Part shown: piece by piece, positions 20,429-53,367 of the stretch
Position numbering within the stretch: position 1 is the stretch's first letter
How the letters are laid out: each line of letters begins with the position of its first letter
Source of the DNA: Candidatus Vogelbacteria bacterium
Lineage (GTDB): Bacteria; Patescibacteriota; Minisyncoccia; Phycocordibacterales; JACRKE01
Reading direction: 5' to 3'
NCBI GenBank assembly: GCA_016215335.1
Contig: JACRKE010000037.1
Span: 2,924-66,923, forward strand
DNA length: 64,000 nucleotides
Notes under the pieces: model-generated
Seen by the model: only the letters and a program-made list of their open reading frames with translations
Databases searched by the model: none
What the model was told of the DNA's origin: nothing
Position numbers and translations under genes: made by a program

Positions 20429-21394
20429 ATGGTAGCTAGCATGAAATACAAAAAAACAAAACTGAATGATGGGCCCCAACCAGCTACTAACCACCGACTA
20501 CTAACTACGCATCCAAAACGCTCCCTAGGGCAAAATTTTTTAACTTCAGAAGCGGCTGTCGCGAAAATTGTTGCTGCGGGCGAAATCAAATCAGATGACA
20601 CTGTTCTTGAGATCGGTCCAGGGAGGGGAGTACTCACAAAAAAACTTCTATCCCTTGCTAGAAAAGTAATAGCGGTCGAAAAAGACGACGAGCTATTTGA
20701 ACTACTCCAAAATAAATTTGCCAAAGAAATCGAAACAGGAAGGTTGCAACTTGTGCATGAGGACATCTTGAAATTTGATGAATCTAACTACAACCTACTA
20801 ACTACAACCTACAACCTAATTTCAAACATTCCATACAACATTACAGGTGCGATCCTCCGTAAATTCTTAACATCAGAACACCAACCATCAACAATGGTTC
20901 TGCTCGTACAAAAAGAGGTGGCGGAAAGAATCGTTGCGCGTGACGGAAAAGAGAGTTTACTCTCCGTAAGTGTGAAGGTCTATGGAAATCCGCAATATAT
21001 AGCTACAGTTAAGGCCGGCAGCTTCTTCCCAGCTCCAAAAGTGGACTCGGCGATAATAAAAATAAGTGACATTTCCCGCGACTTTTTCACCCACATGGAA
21101 ACCGAGCTTCAAAATAAAATAACGTCTAAGAATAACGATTTTACAGAGGGTTCCCCTCTGTATGTGGATAAGTCTGACGTGGAAAGAGAGTTTTTTGAGT
21201 TTGTTTCGGCTGGGTTTGCTCACAAGCGCAAGCTTCTATCCCGGAATTTGGCAGGATATTTTGGAGACCAGGGAGAATGGCTTCAGGCGTGCACAATTGT
21301 AAAAATAAATCCCAAATCCAGGGCGGAAAACTTAAATATTGAAAATTGGAAAATACTCTTTAACTTATCCACAAAAAACCAGAAAAATCCTTAG
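20429..21394 (+). CDS. rsmA: 16S rRNA (adenine1518/1519-N6)-dimethyltransferase RsmA/KsgA
   Basis: SLGQNFL, SAM-binding motif LEIGPGRGVLT, NIPYNIT motif; in-frame heptamer-repeat insert (YNLLTTTYNL) and extended C-terminus. Confidence 0.8.
   Translation: MVASMKYKKTKLNDGPQPATNHRLLTTHPKRSLGQNFLTSEAAVAKIVAAGEIKSDDTVLEIGPGRGVLTKKLLSLARKVIAVEKDDELFELLQNKFAKEIETGRLQLVHEDILKFDESNYNLLTTTYNLISNIPYNITGAILRKFLTSEHQPSTMVLLVQKEVAERIVARDGKESLLSVSVKVYGNPQYIATVKAGSFFPAPKVDSAIIKISDISRDFFTHMETELQNKITSKNNDFTEGSPLYVDKSDVEREFFEFVSAGFAHKRKLLSRNLAGYFGDQGEWLQACTIVKINPKSRAENLNIENWKILFNLSTKNQKNP
20784..20818. repeat. CTAACTA/CAACCTA heptamer array (5 units) in frame within rsmA
   Basis: ctaactacaacctactaactacaacctacaaccta encodes NYNLLTTTYNL; related degenerate copies at 20379-20396 and 20477-20510. 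Confidence 0.8.
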
Positions 21395-29003: not shown

Positions 29004-29076
29004 AACATACGGGCACATCAATACACAAGAGCAAACACAGTGAGCGTAGTATAATAAAATCAATCTTAGATTTAAA

Positions 29077-29484
29077 ATGCAATTTCAAGTTCCACAATTC
29101 ATCGAAGTAGAGGACAAAATAGTCGGGCCTTTTACTTTTAAACAACTGATTTTTATGATCGGCGGTCTTGGCGGAATCTATATTCTCAAAAAAATTCTGC
29201 CCGCCATGCTTGCGTATCCGCTCATGCTCGCGCTCGGAGTGTTCACGTGGGCTCTCATTTTTTACAAATACAATGACAGGCCTTTTATTCTAGCTCTTCA
29301 ATCTTGGATAAAATACGAACTTTCCGCCAAATTGTATCTGTGGAACAAGCATCCGAAACCGATTACAACCAAAGACCCAAAGAAGCCCGGTGCCGCAATA
29401 CCAACCACAATGGCACCTACAGTATCGCAGAACAAATTAAAAGAGCTGTCATGGAGTTTAGACATTCAAGATAGTGTGAAGTGA
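29077..29484 (+). CDS. PrgI-like small membrane protein (T4SS VirB3-like candidate)
   Basis: 135 aa with two hydrophobic helices (LIFMIGGLGGIYIL, AYPLMLALGVFTWALIFY), located directly upstream of the VirB4-like ATPase as in Gram-positive-type conjugation loci. Confidence 0.5.
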   Translation: MQFQVPQFIEVEDKIVGPFTFKQLIFMIGGLGGIYILKKILPAMLAYPLMLALGVFTWALIFYKYNDRPFILALQSWIKYELSAKLYLWNKHPKPITTKDPKKPGAAIPTTMAPTVSQNKLKELSWSLDIQDSVK

Positions 29485-29566
29485 TTACGAATACAGATTT
29501 ATGATTTAGGAATAAATGTACAGCTCTTAAATCTTAAATCTAATCTCCTAAATCCACCTAAAACAA

Positions 29567-30223
29567 ATGGCCGACGCAAAACAAACGAGATTAACGCAGG
29601 ATTTTGTACCTATCGAGGAGGTGCGTGATGGAATTGCCTTGCTCAAAGACGGTACAATGTGCCTTATATTGATGGCATCCTCACTCAACTTCGCCCTCAA
29701 GTCTTCAGACGAGCAGCAAGCGATCCTGCTCCAATTCCAAAACTTTTTAAACTCTCTTGACTTCAGCGTGCAATTTTACGTTCAGTCAAGAAAACTCGAC
29801 ATCAGACCATATTTAGCGACTCTTGAGGATCGTTTGGCTCTGCAGACCAACGACCTTATCAAGATTCAGATTAAGGAATACATTGGATTTATTAAAAACT
29901 TCACCGAAAACACAAGTATCATGACCAAAAGTTTTTTCTTGGTTATTCCGTATACGCCTGCCATGCTCAACGTAAAACAAAGCAAAGGCATACTGTCACA
30001 GTTCTTCGGAAAAGGTTCGACTAAAGAACAGGACGATCTGAAAAAGTTAACCTTCGAGGAGAACCGTACACAACTTGAACAAAGAGCGAGCGTGGTAGAA
30101 CAGGGACTCGCGAGAACAGGAGTGAGGACCATCCCTCTCGGCACAGAGGAGCTCGTGGAACTTTATTACAAAATATTCAATCCTGGCGAACTCGAGAAGC
30201 CGATCGCCAACAGAATACAATAA
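29567..30223 (+). CDS. VirB4-like N-terminal domain encoded as a separate ORF
   Basis: 218 aa; the stop at 30221-30223 is followed 4 nt later by the ATG of the ATPase ORF in another frame; combined length 836 aa equals a full-length VirB4. Confidence 0.4.
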   Translation: MADAKQTRLTQDFVPIEEVRDGIALLKDGTMCLILMASSLNFALKSSDEQQAILLQFQNFLNSLDFSVQFYVQSRKLDIRPYLATLEDRLALQTNDLIKIQIKEYIGFIKNFTENTSIMTKSFFLVIPYTPAMLNVKQSKGILSQFFGKGSTKEQDDLKKLTFEENRTQLEQRASVVEQGLARTGVRTIPLGTEELVELYYKIFNPGELEKPIANRIQ

Positions 30224-30227
30224 ACAT

Positions 30228-32084
30228 ATGGCACTATTCGGATTCTTGGGCAAAAAAAATACAGAGAGCGAAAAAGCAAGCGAGCCGACGACCGCGCCTA
30301 TTCTCCCGCAGCAGATTTATGAGGCGGGCCTGCTTGATCTTAAAGACGTCATCGCTCCTTCCGCTCTCAAAATCACGCCTCAAGAGCTCAATTTGGGAGA
30401 GAAAATCGCCAGAACATTTTTCGTAATTTCATACCCGAGGTTTCTTTCTGAAAATTGGTTCTCGCCAATTATCAACTTAGACAAAATTTTCGACGTATCC
30501 ATTCTGGTACACCCCATAGACACGGCTGATGTCTTGCACAAACTGCAGAAAAAGGTGGCGCAAGTGGAAAGCCAGATAGCCCTAAGAGCAGAGAAAGGTA
30601 TGGTCCGGGATCCTGTTCTTGATGTCGCCTTTCAAGACATCGAACAGTTGCGAGATCAGCTCCAGCAATCGAGAGAGCATATTTTCGATGTCGGTCTTTA
30701 CATCACAATTTACGCAGACACAATAGAAGAGCTAAACAAAACCGAGTCCGAGGTTAAATCTATCCTCGAGGCCAAATTAGTCTACATCAAGCCCGCGCTC
30801 TTCCAGCAAGAAGAAGGCTTCTCGACCGTAATGCCAATTGCAACCGACAAACTATCAGTAAACTCAAAGCTTAATTCATCACCGCTCTCAAGTCTTTTTC
30901 CATTCATCTCATTCGACTTGTCTTCTGATAAAGGTATTCTTTACGGCATCAACAGGCACAACTCGGGTCTTGTTTTATTTGACAGATTCTCTTTGGAGAA
31001 TTATAACTCGGTCGTATTCGCTAAGGCTGGATCGGGTAAGAGCTATCTCACAAAACTCGAGATTCTCCGCACACTAATGTTCGATACGGACGTCATTGTT
31101 ATAGATCCAGAGCGCGAGTACGAATACTTAGCCGAAGCTGCGGGTGGACGTTACTTTAACATTTCACTTACTTCAGAAAACCATATAAATCCGTTTGATC
31201 TACCTCCTGTGGGAGAAGGGGAAACTGCTGCTGACGTGCTTCGTTCAAACATTATTAACCTTGTTGGACTATTTCGTCTCATGCTTGGAGGGCTCACTCC
31301 GGAAGAAGATTCTATTATTGACTCTGCTGTTACTGAAACCTACGCCTTAAAAGACATCACTCCGGAAGCCGATTTCACAGGCAAAGAACCTCCGCTCCTT
31401 TCTGATATGGAACTTGTGCTTGCCGGCATGGAAGGAGGAGCGTCGCTCGCACAAAGAATGCTCAAGTATACTCAAGGTACGTGGGCGGGATTCATTAATC
31501 GCCCAACAAACGTAGACATCAACAAAAAGTTCGTAGTGTTTTCTATCCGCGATATGGAAGAAGAACTGAAGCCGGTCGCAATGTACATAGTCATGCACAA
31601 TATCTGGAACTCTGTGCGCAAAGAGCTGAAGAAGAGACTGCTTGTGGTGGACGAGGCGTGGTTTATGATGAAATCGCAAGATACCGCGTCCTTCCTATAC
31701 GGACTTGCCAAACGAGGCCGTAAATATTTCCTCGGGGTGGCTACGATCACCCAAGACGTGGAAGACTTCCTTAAATCTCCTTACGGAATTCCAATCATTA
31801 CGAACTCTTCTATTCAGGTGTTAATGAAGCAATCACCGGCATCCATTGATATTGTTCAGAAGACATTCAACCTGACAGAGGAGGAGAAATATCTGCTCCT
31901 TGAATCGGCGGTCGGAGAGGGGATCTTCTTCGCTGGGATGAAGCATGTGGCGATCAAAGTTATCGCGTCATACACCGAAGACCAGATCATTACGTCGGAC
32001 CCATCACAACTCCTGTCGATAAGAAAAGCGAAAGCTGAGTTGAAGATGGTGGAGGGTGAAGTCGGGCAGGGAACCGTAAATTAG
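30228..32084 (+). CDS. VirB4/TrbE/CagE-like type IV secretion ATPase (C-terminal ATPase part)
   Basis: Walker A AKAGSGKSYLTK, Walker B LLVVDEAWFMM, conserved VirB4 C-terminal motifs (GVATITQDVEDF). Confidence 0.75.
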   Translation: MALFGFLGKKNTESEKASEPTTAPILPQQIYEAGLLDLKDVIAPSALKITPQELNLGEKIARTFFVISYPRFLSENWFSPIINLDKIFDVSILVHPIDTADVLHKLQKKVAQVESQIALRAEKGMVRDPVLDVAFQDIEQLRDQLQQSREHIFDVGLYITIYADTIEELNKTESEVKSILEAKLVYIKPALFQQEEGFSTVMPIATDKLSVNSKLNSSPLSSLFPFISFDLSSDKGILYGINRHNSGLVLFDRFSLENYNSVVFAKAGSGKSYLTKLEILRTLMFDTDVIVIDPEREYEYLAEAAGGRYFNISLTSENHINPFDLPPVGEGETAADVLRSNIINLVGLFRLMLGGLTPEEDSIIDSAVTETYALKDITPEADFTGKEPPLLSDMELVLAGMEGGASLAQRMLKYTQGTWAGFINRPTNVDINKKFVVFSIRDMEEELKPVAMYIVMHNIWNSVRKELKKRLLVVDEAWFMMKSQDTASFLYGLAKRGRKYFLGVATITQDVEDFLKSPYGIPIITNSSIQVLMKQSPASIDIVQKTFNLTEEEKYLLLESAVGEGIFFAGMKHVAIKVIASYTEDQIITSDPSQLLSIRKAKAELKMVEGEVGQGTVN

Positions 32085-32110
32085 GGGGACAGAAAATACA
32101 CATTGGAAAC

Positions 32111-32168
32111 TTGAAACTGGAAGTTAGAAACTGGAATGGTACATTATTCAAGTTTCCATATTCCAGTT
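32111..32168 (+). repeat. cassette-boundary repeat copy A (AAACTGGAAGTTAGAAACTGGAATGGTACATTATTCAAG)
   Basis: ~40-nt unit sharing ~85% identity with copy B; lies 27 nt after the VirB4 stop. Confidence 0.7.
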
Positions 32169-32188
32169 ACCAGATTCTAAACAAAAAA

Positions 32189-32626
32189 ATGGCGAGCCAA
32201 GAGTCCGTAAAACTAGAGAAAAGAATCGAGGTCAGGTGGCCTCTTGTTTTCCTCGCCGCAATTATTTTCGATGGGATAAAGCTTTTACTGCTCGCCCTAG
32301 ATTTGATCGGCTTGCTTGGAGCGGGGTCAGCGGTGAACAGTATTTTGAGCTCAATTTCGGGCTGGATTATTTGGACTCTTTTGAAGTCGGGAGGCGCTCC
32401 AAATCCATGGAAAGATATCCAGAGTTCATTCATTTCAGGCATAATCCCGTTCTGGCACTACATAGGCCAATCGTGGATTGTGAGAAGCGCAAGGCTTCTC
32501 AAGAAATACAAGAAAATGAATGCCGAGTTTGATAAAAAGCGAGCGGAAGAGCTGAACAATCTTATAGCAGAGATAAACAGAGAATCTGCAGAAGCCTTGA
32601 GTTCACCTGAACCCCAAATAGCATAA
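32189..32626 (+). CDS. small membrane protein
   Basis: First ATG (MASQESVKLEK...). The upstream part of track ORF 32111.. is a TTG-initiated read-through of a repeat element. Two TM helices, then a charged C-terminus. Confidence 0.4.
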   Translation: MASQESVKLEKRIEVRWPLVFLAAIIFDGIKLLLLALDLIGLLGAGSAVNSILSSISGWIIWTLLKSGGAPNPWKDIQSSFISGIIPFWHYIGQSWIVRSARLLKKYKKMNAEFDKKRAEELNNLIAEINRESAEALSSPEPQIA

Positions 32627-32628
32627 CC

Positions 32629-33657
32629 ATGTTTCAAATTCAAAACCTAAAAAAATATCTGCCCGGAATATTACTTATAGCGGTGATATTGTTTGCCCTT
32701 CCGGAAAACAGTTGGGCGATAACACAATATTCAATCAAAGGAGATGTTTCCGTGGAAGCAGTACCCGAAAATCCCATTCCAAATTCAAGCGTTAAATTCA
32801 GCGTTACAGACGGTTCAACCGAGTACGAAAATTCAATATACCAGTGGACGCTCGATGGAAAAACTATCCTGAAGGGGCTCGGCCAGAAATCAGTGACTTT
32901 TGCCACCGGACGAGCGGGCAAAGTCATGCAACTTTCGCTCGAACTGCTGACCCCGAGGGGAGAGCTCGTGCAAAAAAAGTTCAGTATAAATCCCGCAAGC
33001 GTTTCAATTGTTTGGGAGACAGATAGTTACACTCCGGACTTCTACGACGGCAAGCCGTTGCCGACGGAAGGTTCCAACGTGCGTTTTATCGCTGTGCCCG
33101 AAATGTACGAGCCGAACGGCAGAAAACTCACGCCAAGCGAACTATACTTTGAATGGAGTCATGAATTCGAAAAAGATTCAGCCATGTCAGGCTACAACAA
33201 AGATGTTTACCCCTACGAGTTTTTAAACACTCTGCGTGAAGATAATTTCTCGGTCAGAGTGAGGAACTTGGATGGCAGTATCGTGGCCGATACCGCGACA
33301 TATCTTGAAGCCATAGATCCGGAAATGTACTTCTACGAGGACAGTCCTCTCCGCGGCACTATATTCAGTAGAGCGGTGAGCGGGGAGTACAATATGGGTT
33401 CGCGAGAAATTACACTCCGCGCAGAACCATATTTTCTGCCGCTCGATAACAAGAGCAGATTGGTGAATGGAATCTTCGACTGGGAGATCGACGGCAAGTT
33501 AGCCACTCCAAGCTCTGGAGACAGGTCTGCGATTACTCTCAGACAAGACAAGGCGGGCAGTGGTAGTGCTGATCTCTCGGCCAAAGTGACAACGGGAACA
33601 GTCGACGTGTCGGCAAATCTTACTGTAAACTTCAGCAAGGGAAGCGTTAGATTTTGA
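32629..33657 (+). CDS. exported protein (signal peptide)
   Basis: 342 aa; N-terminal signal (LLIAVILFALPENSWA); beta-rich composition. Confidence 0.4.
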   Translation: MFQIQNLKKYLPGILLIAVILFALPENSWAITQYSIKGDVSVEAVPENPIPNSSVKFSVTDGSTEYENSIYQWTLDGKTILKGLGQKSVTFATGRAGKVMQLSLELLTPRGELVQKKFSINPASVSIVWETDSYTPDFYDGKPLPTEGSNVRFIAVPEMYEPNGRKLTPSELYFEWSHEFEKDSAMSGYNKDVYPYEFLNTLREDNFSVRVRNLDGSIVADTATYLEAIDPEMYFYEDSPLRGTIFSRAVSGEYNMGSREITLRAEPYFLPLDNKSRLVNGIFDWEIDGKLATPSSGDRSAITLRQDKAGSGSADLSAKVTTGTVDVSANLTVNFSKGSVRF

Positions 33658-34565
33658 TCTATATGAACAGCAAAAAACATCTAAAAATTACAGGACTTAT
33701 AGTGATATTACTCTTTTCTCTTTCTATTTTTACTACAAGCTCATACGCGCTTCAGAACCCGGAAGGTCTCTCCGACAGCTCGGGCAATTCAGGAGCAAAT
33801 CTCCTCGAACCGAGCGTCGAAACAGTGCTTGGCTTCAGCTTTAATAGTTCTTTTGAATCTTTCGCTCTCAAAACATACCAGTGGCTTTTCTGGCTTGCGG
33901 AACTGCTGGCGGTCATAATGCTCGCAATGTATGGCATAGCCTATGTTTGGGGCGCTTTTGGCAGTGAGGCACTAATCAATGAATATAGAGGATACATTAA
34001 AGACATTTTAATCGGCGGCACAATACTGCTTTTAAGCTATCTCATACTAAATACAATCAATCCCAAACTTCTAACAAGTAAACTTTCCATTGAATGCATA
34101 GCAGCGAACGGCTGCAAGGGAATGACGGGGGGTGGGGGAAATAATGATGATTTGAATGTTGCGAGAGACACAACAGAGGCTAATCCGCCACAACGTTTTG
34201 TTCCACCAGTAGACAGAGGGACCGGAGATTTAATTACTGCAATGCGAACAAGTGGTATAGCGGTGAATGGAGACGTAACAAACATAACAAGTACGACAGT
34301 AGGAGGACTTAACGTATTGAACGGAGATATTACAGGAGATTTAACTGACTCGCGAGTCACTGGCACAACTCTCGATTATCGTGGGTTTGTCATCGGGGCT
34401 GACGGAAACCAAACAGTTATTTTAGCCCCGACAGAGAGATTAAATCTTTACTATAACACCTTGCCACGTTCGGGAATCACCGACTCTAGAAGTACTCCCC
34501 ACGGACTGCTTACATTTGATGAAACAAGTGGAAACTACGAATATCGTAATTCTCCAAGATTTTAA
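33654..34565 (+). CDS. membrane protein with signal peptide and two further hydrophobic helices (pilin/VirB2-like topology) plus G/T/N-rich C-terminal extension
   Basis: 303 aa; overlaps the previous stop by 4 nt; topology only. Confidence 0.35.
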   Translation: MIYMNSKKHLKITGLIVILLFSLSIFTTSSYALQNPEGLSDSSGNSGANLLEPSVETVLGFSFNSSFESFALKTYQWLFWLAELLAVIMLAMYGIAYVWGAFGSEALINEYRGYIKDILIGGTILLLSYLILNTINPKLLTSKLSIECIAANGCKGMTGGGGNNDDLNVARDTTEANPPQRFVPPVDRGTGDLITAMRTSGIAVNGDVTNITSTTVGGLNVLNGDITGDLTDSRVTGTTLDYRGFVIGADGNQTVILAPTERLNLYYNTLPRSGITDSRSTPHGLLTFDETSGNYEYRNSPRF

Positions 34566-34579
34566 CTACCCTGCATTCC

Positions 34580-35905
34580 ATGACCTACAAAAGTTTAATT
34601 ATTATAGTTCTAATCTTCCTCTCCATCGGAGCTGGGGCTGGTTGGTATTTCTTTCGGCCCGCCGCGCCGGCTCCGGACGGCGCGGCGGGTGATGCTGTTT
34701 CTGACACAGGCTATTTTCCATCCACGGGTAACTCTTCCGGCGATTCGTCGGGCAAAGGCTCGGGAGGAGCCACAATAATTAAACCTTCGGATCAGGCGGA
34801 CGGGGGTGATAATCTTAACGCAAATGTGAATGTAAATGTGCCGGTTATGCGCCAACTGGTATCGTCACCAGTTTCTGGAGCCACGATACTTACTCACGGG
34901 AGTTCAACATACGTAAGATACATCGAACAAAATACGGGACATATGAGTGAGATCGCTGCGACCGAAAAAGTCTCGAACAAAATCACAAACACAACTATTC
35001 CAAAGACTTACAAAATATTCTGGGGGCCTAAGGGAACTGCCGTCGTTGCAAAGATGTTTGGAGATGAAGGACGCATGAACATTTTGTTCGCCACAACCAC
35101 AATACCTCTTAAGGCCACCACCACGGAAGAAACCTATCGGACATTCACACCGGACTTCGGCTCTTCTATCGGAACACTAGATGGTCTTCTTCTCCCATCG
35201 ATAATAAAAAGTATCGCAGTCTCGCCGGACTCAAACAAACTTTTTTTCCTACTCAAAACCGAAAGCGGGACTGTGGGGGTAATTTCGAATTTCAAAGATG
35301 CCGTTTCAGCTAAAGCACAGATACCCATATTCCAGTCCAGATTGTCAGAGTGGCTTTCGGATTGGCCGGGGAGTGACATTATATTACTCAATTCAAGGCC
35401 GTCTTCAGGAATAACAGGCCTGACTTATTTATTAAACGCGAAAACCAAAAGAACCGAAAAAATTCTTGAAGGCATGGGTCTCACCGCAAAAGCAAGTCCG
35501 GATACCAAGAAGGTAATATTTGCCACCGGCGAGGGAAGCGGACTAAAAACTTTTCTCTATAACATCAATACAAACAAGAAGTTGGCATTTCCACTTCAAA
35601 CCTTGCCGGAAAAATGCACTTTTAGTTTCGACTCGCGTTATGCGTATTGTGGCGTACCCGCACAATTGCCTCTGGGAGAATACCCTGATGACTGGTACAA
35701 AGGCAAAATTCAGTTCAATGACGCAATATGGAAAGTGGACCTGGACAATTTAATCTCCACCGTAATTTCTCCTACCAACACATCACGTACAAGCAGAATT
35801 ATAGACGCAATAGAGTTGAAAACAGATCAAACAGGCGATCTGCTTATCTTTAAGAACAAAATAGATGACACGCTGTGGGCACTCACGCTGGAAACTGGAA
35901 GATAG
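34580..35905 (+). CDS. membrane-anchored exported protein
   Basis: 441 aa, N-terminal TM (LIIIVLIFLSIGAGAGWYFF), Gly/Ser-rich linker; stop codon lies inside repeat copy B. Confidence 0.4.
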   Translation: MTYKSLIIIVLIFLSIGAGAGWYFFRPAAPAPDGAAGDAVSDTGYFPSTGNSSGDSSGKGSGGATIIKPSDQADGGDNLNANVNVNVPVMRQLVSSPVSGATILTHGSSTYVRYIEQNTGHMSEIAATEKVSNKITNTTIPKTYKIFWGPKGTAVVAKMFGDEGRMNILFATTTIPLKATTTEETYRTFTPDFGSSIGTLDGLLLPSIIKSIAVSPDSNKLFFLLKTESGTVGVISNFKDAVSAKAQIPIFQSRLSEWLSDWPGSDIILLNSRPSSGITGLTYLLNAKTKRTEKILEGMGLTAKASPDTKKVIFATGEGSGLKTFLYNINTNKKLAFPLQTLPEKCTFSFDSRYAYCGVPAQLPLGEYPDDWYKGKIQFNDAIWKVDLDNLISTVISPTNTSRTSRIIDAIELKTDQTGDLLIFKNKIDDTLWALTLETGR

Positions 35906-35944
35906 AAACTAGAATGGCGCATTATTCTAGACTACAGATTCAAG
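35887..35944 (+). repeat. cassette-boundary repeat copy B (GAAACTGGAAGATAGAAACTAGAATGGCGCATTATTCTAG)
   Basis: Overlaps the stop codon of 34580..35905; contains a 7-bp hairpin CTAGAAT/ATTCTAG; 47 nt upstream of the MNT start. Confidence 0.7.
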
Positions 35945-35990
35945 TCTATGGCTCGTTCGGCTAGTTCAACCAATCAATTCGTGCTAACAT

Positions 35991-36287
35991 TTGGCTATGG
36001 AAGACATAAAACAATTAGAACAAAGTACGGATATATTTAAAAAATACGGCGCTAAATACGCCGCTCTTTTCGGTTCTCGCGCTCGGGGAGAGGCGGGGCC
36101 CGACAGTGATTTCGATATTTTGGTAAAACTAGAAAAACCAATAGGGCTGTTCTCATTTTCAAATTTCCAATTGGAACTTGAAGATAGACTTAAACGAAAA
36201 GTAGACCTAGTTTCAGAGGGAGGGTTGAATTCTAAAATTCGCGAATTTGTTATGCGCGACCTTAAAATTTTTTATGGACACAGATAA
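35991..36287 (+). CDS. minimal nucleotidyltransferase (MNT) antitoxin-like protein
   Basis: GSRARGEAGPDSDFDILV (GS-x9-DxD pol-beta-type NTase motif), 98 aa. Confidence 0.7.
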   Translation: MAMEDIKQLEQSTDIFKKYGAKYAALFGSRARGEAGPDSDFDILVKLEKPIGLFSFSNFQLELEDRLKRKVDLVSEGGLNSKIREFVMRDLKIFYGHR

Positions 36288-36612
36288 AGTTTACATCGAA
36301 CATATCATTGAGGCCATTGATGCGATACGGGATTATTCGAAGGATTTAACTCGTGACACGCTGAAGGACGCTGAACACCGAATGGCAAAAGACGCAATCG
36401 TTAGAGAGTTAGAAATAATAGGTGAAGCCTCTAAAAACCTGTCTGATGAATTTAAAGAAAAAGAGGAGGGAACCCCATGGCGAGCAGTTGTTGCCATGAG
36501 AAACAACTTAATCCACGAATATTTTGGGATTGACCTTGAAGACGTGTGGGACACAGTCCAGAACGATTTGCCGAAGCTCAAAATCTCACTCAAAAAATAT
36601 CTCGTTAATTAG
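36274..36612 (+). CDS. HepT-like (DUF86) HEPN toxin
   Basis: R-x4-HEY motif (RNNLIHEYF) near the C-terminus; 14-nt overlap with the MNT gene; classic HepT/MNT pair. Confidence 0.7.
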   Translation: MDTDKVYIEHIIEAIDAIRDYSKDLTRDTLKDAEHRMAKDAIVRELEIIGEASKNLSDEFKEKEEGTPWRAVVAMRNNLIHEYFGIDLEDVWDTVQNDLPKLKISLKKYLVN

Positions 36613-36625: not shown

Positions 36626-36683
36626 CGTTGAATCTTGAAGCTAGAATAGTGCATTATTCCAGTATCTAGTTTCTATTCTCCAA
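36626..36683 (+). repeat. cassette-boundary repeat copy C (CTTGAAGCTAGAATAGTGCATTATTCCAG)
   Basis: 14 nt after the HepT stop; shares the core AGAATRGYGCATTATTCYAG with A and B. Confidence 0.65.
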
Positions 36684-37428
36684 CTTCCTGTTTCCCGTCT
36701 ACACTTAACTTCTCCGCCTTCTTCTTGACGTAAAGTTCATGGGCTACTCCGACCGCACTATTAACTACCCAATATATTGAGACTGCAGCAGGTAATGTCA
36801 TCCCTATAAAGGTAATCATGACCGGAAGGAAATACACCATTTGAGTTTGCATGCTCTTCTGAAAGCTGCCGGAAAAACTCGCCGGTCCAGCTTCGACCAC
36901 CTTACTTTTGTCTAGCTTAGGGATAGAGAGCTTGGCTTGGAAAAACTGCGCGACGCCTGCGAGAATGGCAATTACAATGCTTGATTTTGTAACATCGACA
37001 AACCCAAGGAACATAAGGTTGAGCGAAGGGGGGAATGGAGTAAAAGAGTAAAGTTCGGCGGGAACAATCGCGAGGCCCTGAACAACCCAAAACAGTGCGT
37101 AAATAATTGGAATCTGGATAATCAGCGCGCCAAAGCCAGAAAATGGATTGATCCCGTGTTCCTTATAGAGCGCCATAATTTTCGCCCCTTGTTCTTGTGT
37201 GTTTCCTTTGTGTTTTACACGGATTGCCTCTATCTCCGGTTCTATCTCTTTCATTCTTCGCTGTGATTTCACGGACTTGTGCATAAGAGGGAGAGTAACA
37301 AGCCTGATTACAACTGTAACGATTATTATGGCCACACCTACGTCATTCGTGGGAAGAACTGCCGCTAGCCCGACCAAAAGGTTGTAGATAGGCTGGTAGA
37401 AAATTGTGTGAAATAGGAATGAGAACAT
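36673..37428 (-). CDS. yidC: membrane protein insertase YidC (short form)
   Basis: YidC/Oxa1 core with a 5-TM pattern, in the conserved rpmH-rnpA-yidC context. Confidence 0.8.
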   Translation of the reverse strand: MFSFLFHTIFYQPIYNLLVGLAAVLPTNDVGVAIIIVTVVIRLVTLPLMHKSVKSQRRMKEIEPEIEAIRVKHKGNTQEQGAKIMALYKEHGINPFSGFGALIIQIPIIYALFWVVQGLAIVPAELYSFTPFPPSLNLMFLGFVDVTKSSIVIAILAGVAQFFQAKLSIPKLDKSKVVEAGPASFSGSFQKSMQTQMVYFLPVMITFIGMTLPAAVSIYWVVNSAVGVAHELYVKKKAEKLSVDGKQEVGE

Positions 37429-37497
37429 GAGCTAATTAGTATATAGTAAGACCAATCAGTATATAGTATATAGTATATAGTATATAGTATATAGGGG
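37429..37497 (-). promoter_or_regulatory. same upstream motif before yidC, containing a (GTATATA)x5 tandem expansion
   Basis: rc reads TCTCCCCTATATAC(TATATAC)x4...TACTATATACTAATTAGCTC-ATG. Confidence 0.5.
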
Positions 37498-37508: not shown

Positions 37509-37865
37509 CTACGGTAAACCAAGTTTTGTGAGCACTCCCTCAATGTCTCGCTTAAGTTCGTCAAAGGTAGCCAAGACGGCGGGTTTTTTGAATATAAACA
37601 TAATGGTATGGCCGTCTTTCAGGTTCGGTAAAAGTCTGGCTACAATCGCACGGGCGCGACGTTTAATAAGATTTCGTCCCACCGCTGTCTTTTCTACAGA
37701 ACTACTGACAACAAAAGCGAACTTGCTTCCTTCGTTTTCTGTCTTCGTACTCTTGACCAAGAAGAGGGGGGAGTGAGTAGTTTGAAAAACTTTTTTCTTC
37801 GCCGGATCAGAACTAAAAAAAACATCGAGCTCATTCCTTCCCGCCCGATTAACCTTTGGTAACAT
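37509..37865 (-). CDS. rnpA: ribonuclease P protein component
   Basis: 118 aa, basic; RNR-like motif region (GRNLIKRRARAIVAR); position between rpmH and yidC. Confidence 0.7.
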   Translation of the reverse strand: MLPKVNRAGRNELDVFFSSDPAKKKVFQTTHSPLFLVKSTKTENEGSKFAFVVSSSVEKTAVGRNLIKRRARAIVARLLPNLKDGHTIMFIFKKPAVLATFDELKRDIEGVLTKLGLP

Positions 37866-37877: not shown

Positions 37878-38012
37878 CTAAACGGCTAATTTTTTGCGGC
37901 CCTTGCGTCTCCTTCGAAGGAGTGTCGCGCGTCCGGCTGCAGTTTTTTGACGCTCGAGAAAACCGTGTGTTGTTTTTCGTTTTTTTCGCTTCGGATTGTA
38001 TGTAAACGACAT
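37878..38012 (-). CDS. rpmH: 50S ribosomal protein L34
   Basis: Not in the ORF track (44 aa). Minus-strand translation [44 protein letters not shown] matches the L34 consensus; divergent from dnaA. Confidence 0.8.
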
Positions 38013-38175
38013 AAAGTTAGTGTATACTATTTGCACTCTGAAGACAAATAGTTTTTATTTCAAAAGTTTTTCGTAAAAAAAGTTAGACACAGGCAATCCA
38101 CAGACTTATGCACACATTTAGGTAGTTTTCCACAGGGGATAGAGGAGTATACTAAGAAAATTCTAACCATAAACT
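38013..38175. promoter_or_regulatory. rpmH-dnaA divergent spacer with DnaA-box-like 9-mers (candidate oriC segment / dnaA promoter)
   Basis: CAATCCACA 38094-38102, TTATGCACA 38106-38114, TTTTCCACA 38126-38134 (consensus TTATCCACA). Confidence 0.5.
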
Positions 38176-39549
38176 ATGCTAGAAAATAAAAAACTTTGGG
38201 ATGACGTGATTTCACAGATAGAGCTCGGAATTTCAAAGGCGAACTTTAGCACTTGGTTTAAAAACACTTATATTTCAAAGCAGGAAGATGGCATGGTGTT
38301 CCTCTCAGTGCCAAACGACTTTGTTAAAGAGTGGATTTGCAACAAATACCACAAATTTATTCTAAAGATTCTAAGGGATACCAACCCCGGTATACGCGGC
38401 GTCGAATATATAATTCACAAAGAGGACGGTTCGGCGAAACGAGTTGATATGGACGCTGAGGCAGCAGAAAATATCTTCGCCAATCAGCTCAAAATGCAAG
38501 AGATCTATATAAACAAGGAGGACAACCTGAATCCTCGCTACACTTTCGACACCTTAATCATTGGATCATTTAACGAATTGGCTCACGCGGCGGCACAAAG
38601 CGTAGTGCGCAAACCGGGCATGTCTTACAATCCCCTATTTATATACGGAGGAACGGGTCTTGGCAAAACTCATCTCATCCAGTCGATCGGAAATGAGATC
38701 AAGAAGGCTGATCCATCCAAAAAAATCTTCTACATGGGTGCCGAGAAATACGCCGTTGATCTCGTTAATTCCATAAACACAAACAAAATGCATGTGTTCA
38801 AAGACAAATACAAAAGATACGACGTCCTAATTCTCGACGATATTCAGTTCATAGCAGGCAAGGAGCGCACCCAAGAAGAGTTTTTCCATCTGTTCAACAG
38901 TTACCACGACAACAACAAACAGATTGTATTCTCCTCCGATAAACCCCCAAAGCATATAAACGAACTCGAAGAGAGACTTCGCTCAAGGTTTGAGGGTGGG
39001 ATGATTGTAGACATTTCAAGGCCGGAATTCGAGGCAAGACTCGCAATATTGAATGCCAAATTAAAACAAGTTGGGGTTTCGCTTGCCGACGAAGTGGTGC
39101 ACTATGTAGCAACATCCATCCAAGACAGCATACGTGAACTTGAAGGCTCGCTTAACTCGATTGTCTGCCAATCACAACTCAAAAAACGGCCACTGACCTT
39201 AAACGAAGTCAAAACATTAATAAAAAACAATGTTAAACCCCAAAGAACCATCTCAACAAAGGATGTAATTCAGACGGTCGCTGGCTTTTACAATATCGAG
39301 GAGAAAATTCTTTATGAAAAGAGCCGGCGGAAGGAGGTTGTAAAGCCGAGGCAAATTGTTATGTATATTTTACGAGAGGATTTCAACACCTCCTATCCAT
39401 ATATCGGCCAAAAGCTGGGCGGACGCGACCACACTACGGTCATGCATGCATACGAGAAGATCAAGCGTGAGTTAAAGACAGATAGATTACTCGAGCAAGA
39501 AATGGAACAGATAAAAAATATGCTCTACAACGAATACAGTACGGTATGA
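38176..39549 (+). CDS. dnaA: chromosomal replication initiator DnaA
   Basis: AAA+ Walker A GGTGLGKTHL, Walker B VLILDDIQF, sensor and box motifs, C-terminal DNA-binding domain (HTTVMHA). Confidence 0.9.
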   Translation: MLENKKLWDDVISQIELGISKANFSTWFKNTYISKQEDGMVFLSVPNDFVKEWICNKYHKFILKILRDTNPGIRGVEYIIHKEDGSAKRVDMDAEAAENIFANQLKMQEIYINKEDNLNPRYTFDTLIIGSFNELAHAAAQSVVRKPGMSYNPLFIYGGTGLGKTHLIQSIGNEIKKADPSKKIFYMGAEKYAVDLVNSINTNKMHVFKDKYKRYDVLILDDIQFIAGKERTQEEFFHLFNSYHDNNKQIVFSSDKPPKHINELEERLRSRFEGGMIVDISRPEFEARLAILNAKLKQVGVSLADEVVHYVATSIQDSIRELEGSLNSIVCQSQLKKRPLTLNEVKTLIKNNVKPQRTISTKDVIQTVAGFYNIEEKILYEKSRRKEVVKPRQIVMYILREDFNTSYPYIGQKLGGRDHTTVMHAYEKIKRELKTDRLLEQEMEQIKNMLYNEYSTV

Positions 39550-39857
39550 ACAGTATAAGTGTATAGTATAAATGCGTATACCTGTGGAAAAGATGTTAGT
39601 AGCACATCGAAATGTGAGGAAAAATCACTGGAGTAACGGGGGAGACGAAGACGGACGAGTGGGATAAAAATTACAGGTGGAATGCGACTGGGGATACAGT
39701 CTTTATAAATAGAGGTTTTATGAATAAGTTATACACATTGGTGATTAGAGAAAGAACGGCTATATATAAAGGTAGAACAAACTAAGTGAAGTGGTTATCA
39801 ACTTATCAACAACTTTAATAATAACAGTAAGCTAATTATTTAAATAGTACAGACACT
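39550..39857. promoter_or_regulatory. dnaA-dnaN spacer with DnaA-box-like 9-mers and AT-rich stretches (candidate oriC)
   Basis: TGTGGAAAA 39583-39591 (rc of TTTTCCACA), TTATACACA 39729-39737, tandem TTATCAACT/TTATCAACA 39795-39812; AT-rich runs tttataaatagaggttttatgaataag and taataataacagtaagctaattatttaaatag. Confidence 0.5.
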
Positions 39858-40973
39858 ATGAAAGTCGAATGCCTAAAAGAAAAACTGAGGACGGCTGCCA
39901 CAAACGCGGAAAGAGTAACCGGCAAGAATTTAGCGTTGCCGATTCTCGGTTCAATTCTTATTGAGGCCAAAGAAAAGACTCTCCTGATCCGTGCCACAAA
40001 TCTTGAGGTGGGAGTTGAATTTGAAATACCTTCAAAAATTTTAGAGAAAGGCAAAGTGGCTGTTTCGGGCTCACTCCTTAATAGTTTTCTTGGGCTGGTT
40101 GGTGACGGTGATGTTATCAAGATTGAGACCGTGAACGAAAACATGGTTCTTACAACCAGATCAAGCTCGTCCATGATTAAGTGTTTACCCTCTGATGACT
40201 TTCCAACTATTCCAAAGCTTGGCGACTCTAATGTCCTAGAATTGGACGCCGTAAAATTGGTAAACGGTCTCCGGTCGGTGGCATACGCGGCTTCGCTTTC
40301 AGACATGAAGCCGGAAATTTCGAGCGTCTACTTGTACGGAGAAGAGGACGAAATTGTTTTTGCGGCGACTGACTCGTTTCGCCTTGCCGAAAAAAGAATC
40401 AAACTTAAAAGCAGAGAACAGAAGGGAGATCAAATATCAATTATCATTCCTATTAAAAACGCGCTCGAAATCATACGTGTGCTCGAAGGCTTGAACGACT
40501 CTGTGTCTATCTACTACACAAAGAACCAGGTGTCGTTTTCGTCCGGTACGGGCGGAATCTACATCACTTCGCGACTGGTGAATGGTATATTCCCGAATTA
40601 CGGGCAGATCATTTCCAAGGATAAAAAAAGCGAAGTGGTCGTATCCAAGAAGGAACTGCTTAACGCTTTGAAACTCGCTACGGTTTTTACCGATAAATTC
40701 AATCAAGTGACATTCCGCATAATACCCGGGGAGGCGCTGTTCGAAGTAAGCTCGAGGAACAGTGACACCGGGGAGAACACAACCAAAGTTGAGGCTACTG
40801 TTGAAGGCGAAGATATCACTGTGAATTTCAACAACAAATATATTCTGGATTGTTTCAGCTCTATAGAAGAAAACACCCTTGGAATCGCGTTTAACGGTGC
40901 CCAGAGACCGATGGTGATAAGGGGGGTCGGGGATACATCATTTTTCTATCTTGTAATGCCTCTGAACCGATAG
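39858..40973 (+). CDS. dnaN: DNA polymerase III beta sliding clamp
   Basis: 371 aa, three-domain clamp pattern, typical N-terminus (MKVECLKEKL...NLALPILGSILIEA), directly downstream of dnaA. Confidence 0.9.
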   Translation: MKVECLKEKLRTAATNAERVTGKNLALPILGSILIEAKEKTLLIRATNLEVGVEFEIPSKILEKGKVAVSGSLLNSFLGLVGDGDVIKIETVNENMVLTTRSSSSMIKCLPSDDFPTIPKLGDSNVLELDAVKLVNGLRSVAYAASLSDMKPEISSVYLYGEEDEIVFAATDSFRLAEKRIKLKSREQKGDQISIIIPIKNALEIIRVLEGLNDSVSIYYTKNQVSFSSGTGGIYITSRLVNGIFPNYGQIISKDKKSEVVVSKKELLNALKLATVFTDKFNQVTFRIIPGEALFEVSSRNSDTGENTTKVEATVEGEDITVNFNNKYILDCFSSIEENTLGIAFNGAQRPMVIRGVGDTSFFYLVMPLNR

Positions 40974-40979: not shown

Positions 40980-41237
40980 ATGCTAAAGATTGCAGATTTA
41001 ATAAATAGATACACTAAACTTACGGTTCCTGATGGAATTTTACGCGCGAAAGTTTCAGAACTCATTATGCGGGAAATAGGTTTTGATATCCCCGTAGACA
41101 AAATAACAGTTAGAAGAAAAATTGCATTTGTAAATTGCTCACCAGCCATAAAATGTGAATTACAGATTAGAAAAGAGAAGATTCTCTCTAGTCTTATGGA
41201 CGAGTTAGGTAAAGATGCCCCGATAGACATCTCGTGA
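40980..41237 (+). CDS. small protein downstream of dnaN (DUF721/DciA-like candidate)
   Basis: 85 aa; a DUF721 gene is often found at this position; assignment by context only. Confidence 0.3.
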   Translation: MLKIADLINRYTKLTVPDGILRAKVSELIMREIGFDIPVDKITVRRKIAFVNCSPAIKCELQIRKEKILSSLMDELGKDAPIDIS

Positions 41238-52148: not shown

Positions 52149-52215
52149 AGGCTTGGAAAACTAACTAATTTTGGCCGATGAAACGGCCACGACATCGAGC
52201 TCTAGGAGGGCCACG

Positions 52216-53367
52216 ATGAAGTATCTTGAGAACCTTTTCAAACTATTTGTTCTGGTTTGTATTTCCGTGAGTTCGGCTGGTGCGGATTGCCATCCGGGCC
52301 ATGTTGGCAGTGCGGGCTCGACGTCTTCGACATCGAGCCCGAGGATCGTATCCGCCGCGAAACATAAAGCGGCGCGCCAACACAGGTCGGCCCCGAGATC
52401 GCGGGTGACGGAGGCGCCCGTGGAAGCCCCTGAAGCTGTTATGCACCGCTTCTCTCGGACAAGTTTCCACGTCAGAGACGAGTCGAGTGCTGGCACCGCG
52501 GCTCGCATGATTCGCGACTGGCTTGCGGGCAAGAGCTCGTCGAGTCCAATGCGGGCGGGTGTGACTCGTGAAGAGTACGCTGAAGCGCTCGGCTGCTCTT
52601 CGCCCGAAGAGGCAGCGCAGAAGGTGGCTGGCATGCACCTATACCACGTTGACATAACTATTACCCAGGATCTTTTCGAAATGGCCTACTTGGCCGCAGA
52701 CGAGAGGGTCCACTGGGCAAGTTATCGGTCAATGCCGGAGGGGACGTGGGCCTTGTTCGACAAGGAGTCGTCCATCGGGATTGACCTTGGCGACGAGCAC
52801 GACCCAAAGCGAGGGGGGTGCTTCAACCCTTTCCGGTTCCATCCGGAGGAGGTCGAGCATCAGGAACCGCCACCTGAGCACATGCACGTCGCCAAGGGCA
52901 ACATGCCGACTCAGTGTCGGCAGCGATGCTCGGAGGGCTTCATGTCTGCTCCGCCACGCCGGGTGCAGATTCGAGAAGCTCGACCACGCTACGCATCGGC
53001 GACCTATCGGCAGCCGCCTCCAAGGTTCGTGATGCGGCCGCAGTTCAAGCGGCGGCAGTTCAGGCAGTACAGGCCGCATCAGTACCGCGGTCCGCACTTC
53101 CGCCAGGCGCCGCCGCAGATGGTGCGTACGCGCCGTGGTCCGCCCCAGCCGGGACCTCAATGGCGCGGCGTTCCACGAAGTCCGGTCTATATTCCACCCC
53201 AGGCTCGTGGCGGACCGATGAACCCCTACAGCCAGCCGTTCAATCCGGTACCCCGGTCTGGCGGTGGACCGACGAACCCTTACGGTCAGCCATTCCAAGG
53301 TCTGTCTCGAGGTGGTGGGCCGGCGAGTCCTGGCGGAGGGTTCAACCCTCTGCCACGGAACTACTAG
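52216..53367 (+). CDS. exported Pro/Arg/Gln/Gly-rich protein encoded in a GC-rich island
   Basis: First in-frame ATG, preceded by AGGAGG at 52204-52209; signal peptide (LFKLFVLVCISVSSAGA); C-terminal third consists of RGGPxNPYxQPF-type repeats; local GC far above window average. Confidence 0.45.
   Translation: MKYLENLFKLFVLVCISVSSAGADCHPGHVGSAGSTSSTSSPRIVSAAKHKAARQHRSAPRSRVTEAPVEAPEAVMHRFSRTSFHVRDESSAGTAARMIRDWLAGKSSSSPMRAGVTREEYAEALGCSSPEEAAQKVAGMHLYHVDITITQDLFEMAYLAADERVHWASYRSMPEGTWALFDKESSIGIDLGDEHDPKRGGCFNPFRFHPEEVEHQEPPPEHMHVAKGNMPTQCRQRCSEGFMSAPPRRVQIREARPRYASATYRQPPPRFVMRPQFKRRQFRQYRPHQYRGPHFRQAPPQMVRTRRGPPQPGPQWRGVPRSPVYIPPQARGGPMNPYSQPFNPVPRSGGGPTNPYGQPFQGLSRGGGPASPGGGFNPLPRNY

Follow-up and report, generated by a model that had tools for sequence, protein, structure and literature searches.

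Probable DnaA-dependent chromosomal origin, with proposed melting just before dnaN, in a CPR/Patescibacteria bacterium

The locus described here was compared with the basal unwinding system (BUS) of Bacillus subtilis, reportedly described in Richardson 2016. The BUS belongs to the incC region of B. subtilis oriC and consists of DnaA boxes 6 and 7 together with the DnaA-trios (PMC8287927, PMC10721633). According to PMC8287927, the B. subtilis sequence just upstream of dnaN is TTATCCACA/AATCCACA/GGCC/CTA CTA TTA CTT CTA CTA. Asn187 of B. subtilis DnaA is essential and contacts the central adenine of the trio, and Arg202 contacts the first base. According to the paper describing them, the residues of the DnaA dinucleotide pocket are not universally conserved. 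The published search pattern treats the GAT trio and a GC-rich gap as a preference and not as a requirement, and the general trio pattern is permissive, being matched by 85% of predicted origins in the published survey. A term search of that survey's main text gave no hit for the CPR radiation, and no origin study specific to CPR bacteria was found in the literature searched.

Bipartite origins were described for Helicobacter pylori (oriC1/oriC2; PMC3479198) and Clostridioides difficile (PMC7561715); in both, box clusters are reported to flank dnaA, with the unwinding element in the downstream sub-region on the dnaA-dnaN side. Among origin predictors, the 2022 version of Ori-Finder adds DnaA-trios to its criteria (PMC10225481, PMC6323995). 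A BUS is recognised by a pair of co-oriented boxes with a gap of at most 3 bp, accompanied by at least three consecutive trios with a central adenine, on the strand that runs 3'->5' away from the boxes and no more than 16 bp from a box. Our locus is probably the DnaA-dependent chromosomal oriC of a CPR/Patescibacteria bacterium, with melting at the end of the dnaA-dnaN spacer.

Gene order and DnaA boxes

The window, that is the whole 64-kb stretch of DNA that was analysed, contains rpmH, rnpA and yidC divergent from dnaA and dnaN. This order had been proposed in the initial annotation and was borne out by Pfam, and the 44-aa L34 gene listed there was recovered by translation and by its own Pfam match (Table 1). 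The spacers, given earlier as 163 and 308 bp, have exactly these lengths (rpmH-dnaA, 38013-38175; dnaA-dnaN, 39550-39857). The rpmH/dnaA/dnaN layout is typical of Firmicutes-like origins. The encoded DnaA is a complete protein that matches B. subtilis DnaA (8BTG) with E=3e-111. Among 22 related loci (L002-L023), rpmH was found upstream of dnaA in 19 by tblastn, the remaining three being without upstream flank, and the rpmH-dnaA-dnaN synteny was kept wherever the flank was captured. An Rfam search gave no relevant match.

Table 1. Coordinates of genes, DnaA boxes and predicted elements at the locus
Feature	Position	Strand	Details
yidC (membrane insertase, 251 aa)	36673..37428	-	Pfam 60KD_IMP, E=9e-46; same position occupied in relatives
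rnpA (RNase P protein, 118 aa)	37509..37865	-	Pfam Ribonuclease_P, E=4e-15
rpmH (ribosomal protein L34, 44 aa)	37878..38012	-	translation; Pfam Ribosomal_L34, E=4e-16
DnaA box, 2 mismatches	38083	+	TTAGACACA
Head-to-tail array of three DnaA boxes	38083..38114	+	11-12-bp pitch; TTAGACACA 38083, CAATCCACA 38094, TTATGCACA 38106
DnaA box TTTTCCACA	38126..38134	+	13 nt upstream of putative dnaA -10, at -35 position
Putative dnaA promoter -10 hexamer TATACT	38148..38153	+	22 nt before ATG; predicted from sequence
dnaA (initiator, 457 aa, domains I-IV)	38176..39549	+	Pfam DnaA_N, Bac_DnaA, Bac_DnaA_C
DnaA boxes, dnaA-proximal part of dnaA-dnaN spacer	39583..39727	-	four boxes
DnaA box TTTTCCACA (9-mer also given as TGTGGAAAA)	39583	-	1 mismatch
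DnaA boxes, 2 mismatches each	39615, 39689, 39719	-	
DnaA box TTATACACA	39729..39737	+	
Tandem co-oriented DnaA boxes TTATCAACT / TTATCAACA	39795..39811	+	8-nt offset, one base shared
Gap ACT, proximal box to first trio	39812..39814	+	3 nt
DnaA-trio-like repeats	39815..39829	-	top TTA ATA ATA (ACA) GTA; bottom 3'-AAT TAT TAT (TGT) CAT-5'
AT-rich stretch, proposed DNA unwinding element	39812..39857	.	78% A+T; reaches dnaN start codon
dnaN (beta sliding clamp, 371 aa)	39858..40973	+	Pfam DNA_pol3_beta, _2, _3 (three beta-clamp domains)

All boxes named before are present, both the three within 41 nt of the rpmH-dnaA spacer (CAATCCACA, TTATGCACA and TTTTCCACA) and the 9-mers of the dnaA-dnaN spacer (TGTGGAAAA, TTATACACA, TTATCAACT and TTATCAACA). 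Box clusters flank dnaA on both sides in the window, with four boxes upstream and seven downstream. Boxes are enriched here: the window has 22 with at most one mismatch, and five of these fall into the 471 bp of the two spacers, against ~0.16 predicted from its overall rate. Among 500-bp bins of the 64-kb window, box density is greatest in the dnaA-dnaN spacer, followed by the rpmH-dnaA spacer. Box density relative to background, which had been suggested as a check and was scored within this window, is thus highest at the locus. As a conservative null model, first-order Markov simulations were used, each trained on its own spacer. An excess was found for the rpmH-dnaA spacer (P=0.0014 for at most one mismatch, P=0.002 for at most two) and for the dnaA-dnaN spacer (P=0.0002 for at most one mismatch; for at most two, 0/5000 simulations gave as many boxes as observed). 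In all relatives, the boxes in the part of the dnaA-dnaN spacer nearest to dnaA are mainly minus-oriented.

Three perfect TTATCCACA boxes were considered as other origins and rejected. Two of them (21163 and 21365) are within ksgA, and the third (52075) is a single intergenic box; none comes with a cluster, a composite module or a skew switch.

The end of the dnaA-dnaN spacer

From the sequence, the tandem TTATCAAC pair is proposed to be the anchor of a conserved box-pair and DnaA-trio unwinding module, which the initial annotation overlooked. In the window the module occupies 39795-39829. Its boxes, TTATCAACT at 39795 and TTATCAACA at 39803, are offset by 8 nt, and 3 nt past the second box the bottom strand carries three consecutive trios with a central adenine, 3'-AAT TAT TAT-5' (39815-39823); CAT follows after one break. 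The trio 3'-GAT-5', which is preferred above all next to the box, and a GC-rich gap are absent from the module of the window, with AAT/TAT/TAT and ACT in their places. AT-rich stretches fit for a DNA-unwinding element had been noted in this spacer before, and 39812-39857 agrees with that description. Nearest-neighbour calculation gives 39817 as the first position of the spacer's least stable 30-bp segment, which falls on the trios and the bases behind them; only ~0.1% of positions in the window are computed to be less stable. Since the tandem pair would anchor an unwinding module, the likely melting site lies within the final ~45 bp of the spacer, next to dnaN.

The composite pattern of box pair and trios has a single occurrence in the 64-kb window and likewise a single one in each matching locus. 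It is always located at the end of the dnaA-dnaN spacer, on the same strand, and was found nowhere else in 193 kb; among 300 simulated windows it arose in five. A profile HMM built from 15 relatives only was run on the window and gave one significant match (plus strand, 39795; E=3e-4), the next best having E=2.4.

Conservation was analyzed with 16 distinct dnaA-dnaN spacers from CPR bacteria (DnaA 60-81% identical). These spacers are otherwise unalignable, with a mean column identity of 45% among the six closest, and the invariant columns of these six are concentrated in the module. In 16/16 relatives the spacer ends with a pair of co-oriented boxes offset by 8 nt, 22-51 nt before the dnaN ATG (101 nt in L002). 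The pair is followed by a gap of 2-4 nt and at least three consecutive phased 5'-NTA-3' triplets in 12/16; the gap measures 3 nt in 14/16. Across the relatives, T stands at +5/+8/+11 and A at +6/+9/+12. One phase holds 51 of the 70 TA dinucleotides and 0/5000 shuffles reached this number. Statistically, the sequences of the relatives are not independent. The clade consensus of the triplets on the top strand is nTA ATA (A/G)TA ATA. GAT is the first trio in five of the 16 relatives; L004 and L008 alone have a GC-rich gap. In L005, the closest relative (81% DnaA identity), the box pair is present without clean trios.

The box pair and the TA-rich element might be only a DnaA-controlled dnaN promoter, with melting elsewhere or with a dual role. 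The boxes would then lie over the -35 element and the triplets would act as the -10. A scan gives TTATCA(39795)-16-AATAAT on the plus strand, but promoter-like matches in the region number 4 versus 4.6 expected from shuffles. A perfect TATAAT is found within the triplet run of four relatives (L009, L014, L018 and L023), yet A is found at +13 in 15/16 sequences, where a -10 hexamer needs T. The position of the module relative to the dnaN ATG would leave a plausible leader, and TATACT is likewise seen ~20 nt before starts in the window. However, the 3-nt phasing spans 12-15 nt, exceeding a hexamer, and keeps a fixed register from the end of the box; TATAAT-like hexamers, by contrast, stand at a variable distance from -35-like elements. 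Together with the strand-asymmetry switch at the dnaA-dnaN spacer (see below), these data make a promoter-only function unlikely. A dual role of the module in promotion and unwinding would be compatible with the origin reading.

Strand composition and the boxes upstream of dnaA

A cumulative GC-skew minimum had been suggested as a further check. With raw skew this failed, since no minimum was found at the locus in the 64-kb window. The local minima of raw GC skew at ~10 and ~18 kb coincide with gene-orientation switches, and raw skew is uninformative because coding-strand bias swamps the signal. As the data comprised a 64-kb window, raw skew was replaced by third-codon-position skew, with gene strand included as a term. 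By this measure, cumulative GC3 skew bottoms at 40901 and cumulative AT3 skew peaks at 39917. The best AT3 breakpoint was observed between dnaA and dnaN, independent of gene strand (0/1000 gene-order permutations). The polarity is G,T-rich rightward and thus that of an origin, not of a terminus. In 10/11 related loci, GC3 skew is negative to the left and positive to the right (p=0.002). In the window alone, the best GC3 split is at 57 kb and not significant (116/1000 permutations), and the GC3 sign is wrong over 0-16 kb. The AT3 left/right flip was not replicated across the relatives (7/11).

The dnaA gene of the window carries the third-position skews of the left replichore (AT3 +0.13, GC3 -0.16). 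In 12/14 loci, dnaN has a higher GC3 skew than dnaA (p=0.013), which is a weak hint only; AT3 and four-fold sites gave no significant difference between dnaA and dnaN in the relatives. Skew by itself cannot separate the two candidate spacers, which are 1.4 kb apart.

Gene orientation was also recorded. Coding bases are co-directional with the departing fork in 21% of cases left of the site (leftward fork) and in 70% to the right. The left flank has 79% of its coding bases head-on to replication, which is unusual beside an origin.

Boxes linked to dnaA are found at autoregulated dnaA promoters even where the origin lies elsewhere, for example in E. coli. With promoter boxes distant from the origin as precedent, the boxes of our locus could be purely transcriptional regulators and the chromosome origin could lie outside the window. 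Raw GC skew without a switch at the locus and the head-on gene bias of the left flank, unexpected beside an origin, would both fit. We regard this as very improbable: the AT3 skew flips at the locus with origin polarity in the permutation analysis, GC3 flips there in 10 of the 11 relatives, and simple autoregulation would have no use for the conserved module of unwinding type.

The rpmH-dnaA spacer contains a putative dnaA promoter. Its TATACT is found again ~20 nt ahead of the starts of several genes in the window, and relatives have GTATACT or TATAAT at the equivalent position. A scan of the locus for sigma-70 promoters and terminators left this likely promoter unflagged and found no terminator after dnaA. 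Judged by its position relative to TATACT, box TTTTCCACA at 38126 may be an autoregulatory operator. Triple box arrays with a 10-11-bp pitch are located upstream of dnaA in five relatives (L003, L011, L013, L016 and L019), with a two-box form in L014. No upstream box cluster was found in L008-L010, which have upstream spacers of 71-74 bp, though the downstream module is kept there. The upstream boxes adjoin the likely dnaA promoter, and three relatives lack them; they are thus probably accessory or autoregulatory. The four boxes of the rpmH-dnaA spacer (38083-38134) most likely serve dnaA autoregulation and/or form an accessory DnaA-loading platform, and are not the melting site.

Alternatively, melting could take place in this upstream spacer, and the dnaA-dnaN boxes could have a regulatory role or form that half of a bipartite origin which does not melt. 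Four boxes in 52 bp with an 11-12-bp helical pitch, and similar arrays in many relatives, would suit such a function; however, the cluster is wholly missing in L008-L010, and no upstream spacer searched contained the composite of box pair and trios. The boxes are preceded by an AT-rich segment (38036-38085; z=2.4, 0.76% of window positions less stable), but the helix is less unstable there than at 39817. The spacer is too close to the dnaA-dnaN spacer for the resolution of the skew data to decide, yet the left-replichore skews of the window dnaA and the lower GC3 of dnaA than dnaN in 12 of the 14 loci speak against it. The boxes also overlap the likely dnaA promoter, so autoregulation fits. 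Upstream melting is therefore quite unlikely.

We prefer an origin that melts at the end of the dnaA-dnaN spacer. A box cluster, an AT-rich element, a third-position skew switch and the rpmH-dnaA-dnaN linkage, by which oriC is recognised, are found together at the locus. The initial proposal that the window probably contains oriC is supported by the boxes, the conserved module and the skew switch. From these features we infer DnaA binding, the melting site and promoter function. By analogy with B. subtilis, DnaA would bind the box array of the 308-bp spacer, especially the tandem pair (39795-39811). ATP-DnaA would oligomerise from this double-stranded anchor onto the neighbouring trinucleotide repeats (39815-39829; 3'-NAT-5' on the bottom strand), capture the bottom strand and melt the AT-rich stretch 39812-39857 just before dnaN. 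The helicase would be loaded at the melted stretch, and forks would depart from it bidirectionally.

Comparison with described origins

The position of an origin in an uncultured CPR genome aids genome orientation, replichore analysis and coverage-based growth-rate estimates. A CPR/Patescibacteria clade shows, as a conserved footprint, the layout of box pair and DnaA-trios defined in Bacillus, which widens the reach of the known mechanism. The locus extends this mechanism and opens no new question; as an annotation it is well founded but unremarkable. Natural variants are offered in the first base of the trio, the 3-nt gap and Asn187Val.

The window DnaA keeps E183, I193, N196, K222, E223 and E228 of the single-strand-binding pocket of B. 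subtilis DnaA. Substitutions are I190V, R202K and N187V, the last being non-conservative. Within the clade, Val, Ile, Thr or Ser is found at the position of Asn187 and Lys at that of Arg202. L004 is the sole relative that keeps both Asn and Arg, and it has a 4-nt GC-rich gap like that of B. subtilis and purine-first trios (3'-AAT-5'). It is conceivable, though rather doubtful, that the DnaA of this clade reads a different trio (3'-TAT-5' on the bottom strand, 1 nt closer to the box) via an altered single-strand pocket. If true, this would be a case of natural covariation between initiator and origin.

As in B. subtilis, the module of the window occupies the dnaN-proximal end of the dnaA-dnaN spacer, its boxes are co-oriented with the 8-nt offset of boxes 6 and 7, and its trios agree in strand (central A, 3'->5' away from the boxes) and register. 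An AT-rich stretch comes next after the trios in both, and both have a second box cluster upstream of dnaA, beside rpmH. In contrast to B. subtilis, the gap is 3 nt (ACT) instead of 4 nt (GGCC), the trios are 3'-AAT/TAT/TAT-5' and not GAT-rich, three trios are consecutive instead of six, and position 6 of the box is often A in the clade (TTATCAACA).

The bipartite origins of H. pylori and C. difficile, as reported, resemble the locus in that the clusters flank dnaA and the proposed unwinding element is on the dnaA-dnaN side. Unlike in these origins, the upstream cluster is not universal in the clade (none in L008-L010) and overlaps the probable dnaA promoter. Since it is lost in three relatives, a strict need for both halves is doubtful in this clade. 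Like the predictions of Ori-Finder and DoriC (PMC10225481, PMC6323995), our assignment is based on box clusters, adjacency of dnaA and dnaN, and compositional asymmetry. It differs from them in that a 64-kb window was analyzed with third-position skews, and in that conservation across 16 uncultured relatives was added.

Gene order and DnaA boxes at the dnaA locus

All five genes of the rpmH-rnpA-yidC / dnaA-dnaN arrangement proposed by the initial annotation were found as described, including the small L34 gene. The spacer lengths of 163 bp (rpmH-dnaA) and 308 bp (dnaA-dnaN) were right, and every quoted 9-mer was found where expected. The same DnaA was also present on a single short public contig. 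The nearest genomes by DnaA were uncultured CPR/Patescibacteria, with identities of 77% for a Candidatus Vogelbacteria MAG, 65% for a Roizmanbacteria-labelled MAG and 60% for a Saccharibacteria-labelled MAG. A metagenome scan added 19 further loci (DnaA identity 60-81%). The order yidC-rnpA-rpmH / dnaA-dnaN was kept in related loci wherever the flank was captured.

Genes of the dnaA locus and parts of the module before dnaN (window positions)
Feature	Position	Strand	Sequence or evidence
rpmH	37878..38012	-	44-aa translation; Pfam Ribosomal_L34, E=4e-16
rnpA	37509..37865	-	Pfam
yidC	36673..37428	-	Pfam
dnaA	38176..39549	+	DnaA_N, Bac_DnaA, Bac_DnaA_C
dnaN	39858..40973	+	Pfam
Module, box pair	39795-39811		TTATCAAC TTATCAACA
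Module, gap	between 39811 and 39815		ACT
Module, triplets	39815-39829		TTA ATA ATA ACA GTA

Several further features flank these genes. The yidC-rnpA spacer (37458-37494) carries a perfect 7-nt tandem repeat, AGTATAT x5.3, the least stable 30-50-bp duplex of the whole window. Read on the minus strand, it supplies five TATACT hexamers in tandem, 29-57 nt ahead of the yidC start, and yidC may use it as a reiterated -10 element. A toxin-antitoxin pair of an MNT-like nucleotidyltransferase (Polbeta/NTP_transf_2) and a HepT-like RNase (35991-36612) adjoins yidC and is separated from the predicted origin by roughly 1.5-3 kb. An unbroken + strand block spans 18333-36612, and the gene just past yidC is likewise on the + strand in at least eight relatives. 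Directly after dnaN, an ORF of 81-87 aa without a Pfam family is conserved (window 40980-41237; relatives L002 6955-7218, L003 4094-4348, L004 6698-6943). Presumably, it stands where Firmicutes carry yaaA, a small S4-like gene.

DnaA boxes with at most one mismatch were in mild excess in the whole window (22 observed, 13.7 expected), and 5 of the 22 lay within the two spacers (471 bp together). Within the 64-kb window box density stood above background, the dnaA-dnaN spacer being the densest 500-bp bin and the rpmH-dnaA spacer the second. As a control, each spacer was itself used to train first-order Markov simulations, a conservative choice because the training sequence includes the boxes. 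Counts as high as those observed were rare upstream (P=0.0014 at ≤1 mismatch, P=0.002 at ≤2) and downstream (P=0.0002 at ≤1 mismatch; 0 of 5000 simulations reached the count at ≤2).

Perfect boxes also occur elsewhere. Two copies of TTATCCACA lie 200 bp apart inside ksgA/rsmA (RrnaAD, 20429..21394) at 21163-21171 (-) and 21365-21373 (+); this site showed no box cluster, trio module or skew change, and the copies are therefore probably due to chance. An isolated TTATCCACA at 52075-52083 follows a long near-perfect hairpin (52011-52078). Downstream of this box, a near-consensus promoter, TTGACA(52120)-17-TATACAAT, is directed at a GC-rich island and may be DnaA-regulated. The island (52100-53450; about 0.55-0.6 G+C against 0.45 for the window) has overlapping ORFs on both strands and gave no match in Pfam (even at E≤1) or Rfam. 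In the island's ORF 52171..53367 (+), the N-terminus resembles a signal peptide, the tail is rich in Pro, Arg and Gln, and the usual codon-position purine pattern is missing; this ORF could encode an orphan secreted protein or be non-coding.

Strand asymmetry

The annotation had suggested a cumulative GC-skew minimum as a check, and raw GC skew showed none at the locus. Its local minima at about 10 and 18 kb fell at changes in gene orientation, and regression confirmed the coding-strand effect on skew. We therefore give skews at third codon positions (GC3, AT3). Measured on the + strand, almost every gene on the left had a positive AT3 and almost every gene on the right a negative one, independent of gene strand. 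Cumulative AT3 had its maximum at 39917. The best AT3 breakpoint fell between dnaA and dnaN and halved the residual variance, which 0 of 1000 gene-order permutations matched. Cumulative GC3 had its window minimum at 40901; for GC3 alone the breakpoint in the window was not significant, and 0-16 kb had the opposite sign.

In related loci, GC3 was negative left and positive right of the spacer in 10 of 11 (Wilcoxon p=0.002), and the AT3 switch was not reproduced in these 11. Of 14 loci, 12 had a lower GC3 in dnaA than in dnaN (p=0.013); at four-fold sites this comparison was not significant in relatives. Leading strands carry more G than C and more T than A. G and T are in excess on the + strand right of the site, and by this rule the polarity is that of an origin and not of a terminus. 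An origin outside the window is disfavoured by the presence of the switch at this locus. Skew puts the switch at the dnaA locus but cannot firmly assign it to one of the two spacers. Gene orientation was strongly asymmetric and at odds with an origin here: head-on coding bases made up 79% left of the site (leftward fork) against 30% to the right, that is, 21% (1-39800) and 70% (39900-64000) were co-directional.

A conserved module before dnaN

We compared 16 distinct dnaA-dnaN spacers (191-380 bp, 12-46% G+C), which were largely unalignable. The six closest had a mean column identity of 45%, with invariant columns clustered in one block. A co-oriented DnaA-box pair at 8-nt offset was present in 16 of 16, ending 22-51 nt before the dnaN ATG (101 nt at one locus). 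In 12 of them a gap of 2-4 nt followed, then 5'-NTA-3' triplets, three or more in a row. Column counts over the 16 spacers gave T at +5, +8 and +11 after box 2 in 11, 14 and 13, and A at +6, +9 and +12. Of the TA dinucleotides in the 21 nt past box 2, 51 of 70 were in one phase, matched by 0 of 5000 mononucleotide shuffles, a statistic that overstates independence as related sequences have common ancestry.

The window contained a single copy of the composite pattern, and the 193 kb of related loci had none outside this place; 5 of 300 simulated windows produced it by chance. A profile HMM built from 15 relatives only had its sole significant window match at 39795 (+) (E=3e-4; runner-up E=2.4). 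L005, the closest relative, fits less well, as it has the box pair and lacks clean trios. By nearest-neighbour parameters, the dnaA-dnaN spacer is least stable in the 30 bp that start at 39817, on the trios and past them; lower stability occurs at only some 0.1% of window positions. The minimum of the rpmH-dnaA spacer is weaker (0.9%). The likely unwinding module is located at 39795-39857.

The same element could be read as a dnaN promoter only. A promoter scan matched TTATCA-16-AATAAT at the module, and TATAAT-like hexamers lie within the modules of relatives. However, two features fit this poorly: a phasing that runs over 12-15 nt in register with the box end, and an A that 15 of 16 sequences have at +13. 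The element may also serve both as promoter and as unwinding module.

Upstream of dnaA, head-to-tail boxes at 38083, 38094 and 38106 (11-12-bp pitch) are followed by a fourth (38126), with 13 nt between its end and a TATACT hexamer (38148). This hexamer is 22 nt from the dnaA ATG, and copies of TATACT also precede other start codons of the window by about 20 nt. Many relatives have similar triple arrays, then TATAAT or TATACT. Melting at this upstream site is disfavoured, as the cluster is missing in three relatives and the composite module is absent from upstream spacers. L008-L010 (upstream spacers 71-74 bp) lack the array and retain the downstream module; we therefore infer an autoregulatory or accessory role for the upstream cluster.

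In L011 (980-2386) and L012 (1265-2500), 1.2-1.4 kb with an extra ORF are inserted between rpmH and dnaA, and the triple array keeps its place about 200 nt upstream of dnaA. A conserved AGTGTATACTA motif with a GTATAC palindrome lies 6-10 nt from the rpmH start codon (38019-38029) and at the equivalent place in L002, L003, L005 and L013. Were this motif the -10 element of rpmH, the mRNA would have almost no leader.

In summary, box enrichment, the conserved module and the third-position skew switch support the oriC claim for this locus. Its assignment as the oriC of a CPR bacterium is a well-supported, ordinary computational call. Our literature search, incomplete in coverage, found no CPR-specific origin description.

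DnaA and the basal unwinding system

B. subtilis DnaA (8BTG) and the window DnaA align over their full length (E=3e-111). Nine B. subtilis residues are reported to contact the trio strand (PMC10721633). E183, I193, N196, K222, E223 and E228 are identical in the window DnaA; I190 is replaced by Val, R202 by Lys and N187 by Val. N187 reads the central adenine in B. subtilis (PMC10721633), and across the clade Val, Ile, Thr or Ser stands in its place. Asn and Arg are both retained in L004 alone, which also has a 4-nt GC-rich gap (GTCC) and TTA TTA TTA trios; this single data point is no more than a lead.

The basal unwinding system consists of a co-oriented DnaA-box pair, a short gap and three or more DnaA-trios (with 3'-GAT-5' as their consensus, central adenine conserved), and ATP-DnaA opens the duplex by extending from the boxes onto the trios (PMC8287927; PMC10721633). 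The general trio pattern is permissive and matched by 85% of predicted origins (PMC8287927). The B. subtilis element, directly before dnaN at 1852-1900, is listed in a supplementary table as the complement of TTATCCACA, AATCCACA, GGCC and CTA CTA TTA CTT CTA CTA (PMC8287927). B. subtilis and the window are alike in box orientation, 8-nt box offset, trio strand and trio register. In contrast to GGCC, the window gap is 3 nt and not GC-rich, and its trios read 3'-AAT/TAT/TAT-5' instead of the consensus. The top-strand trio consensus of the clade, nTA ATA (A/G)TA ATA, likewise differs from B. subtilis.
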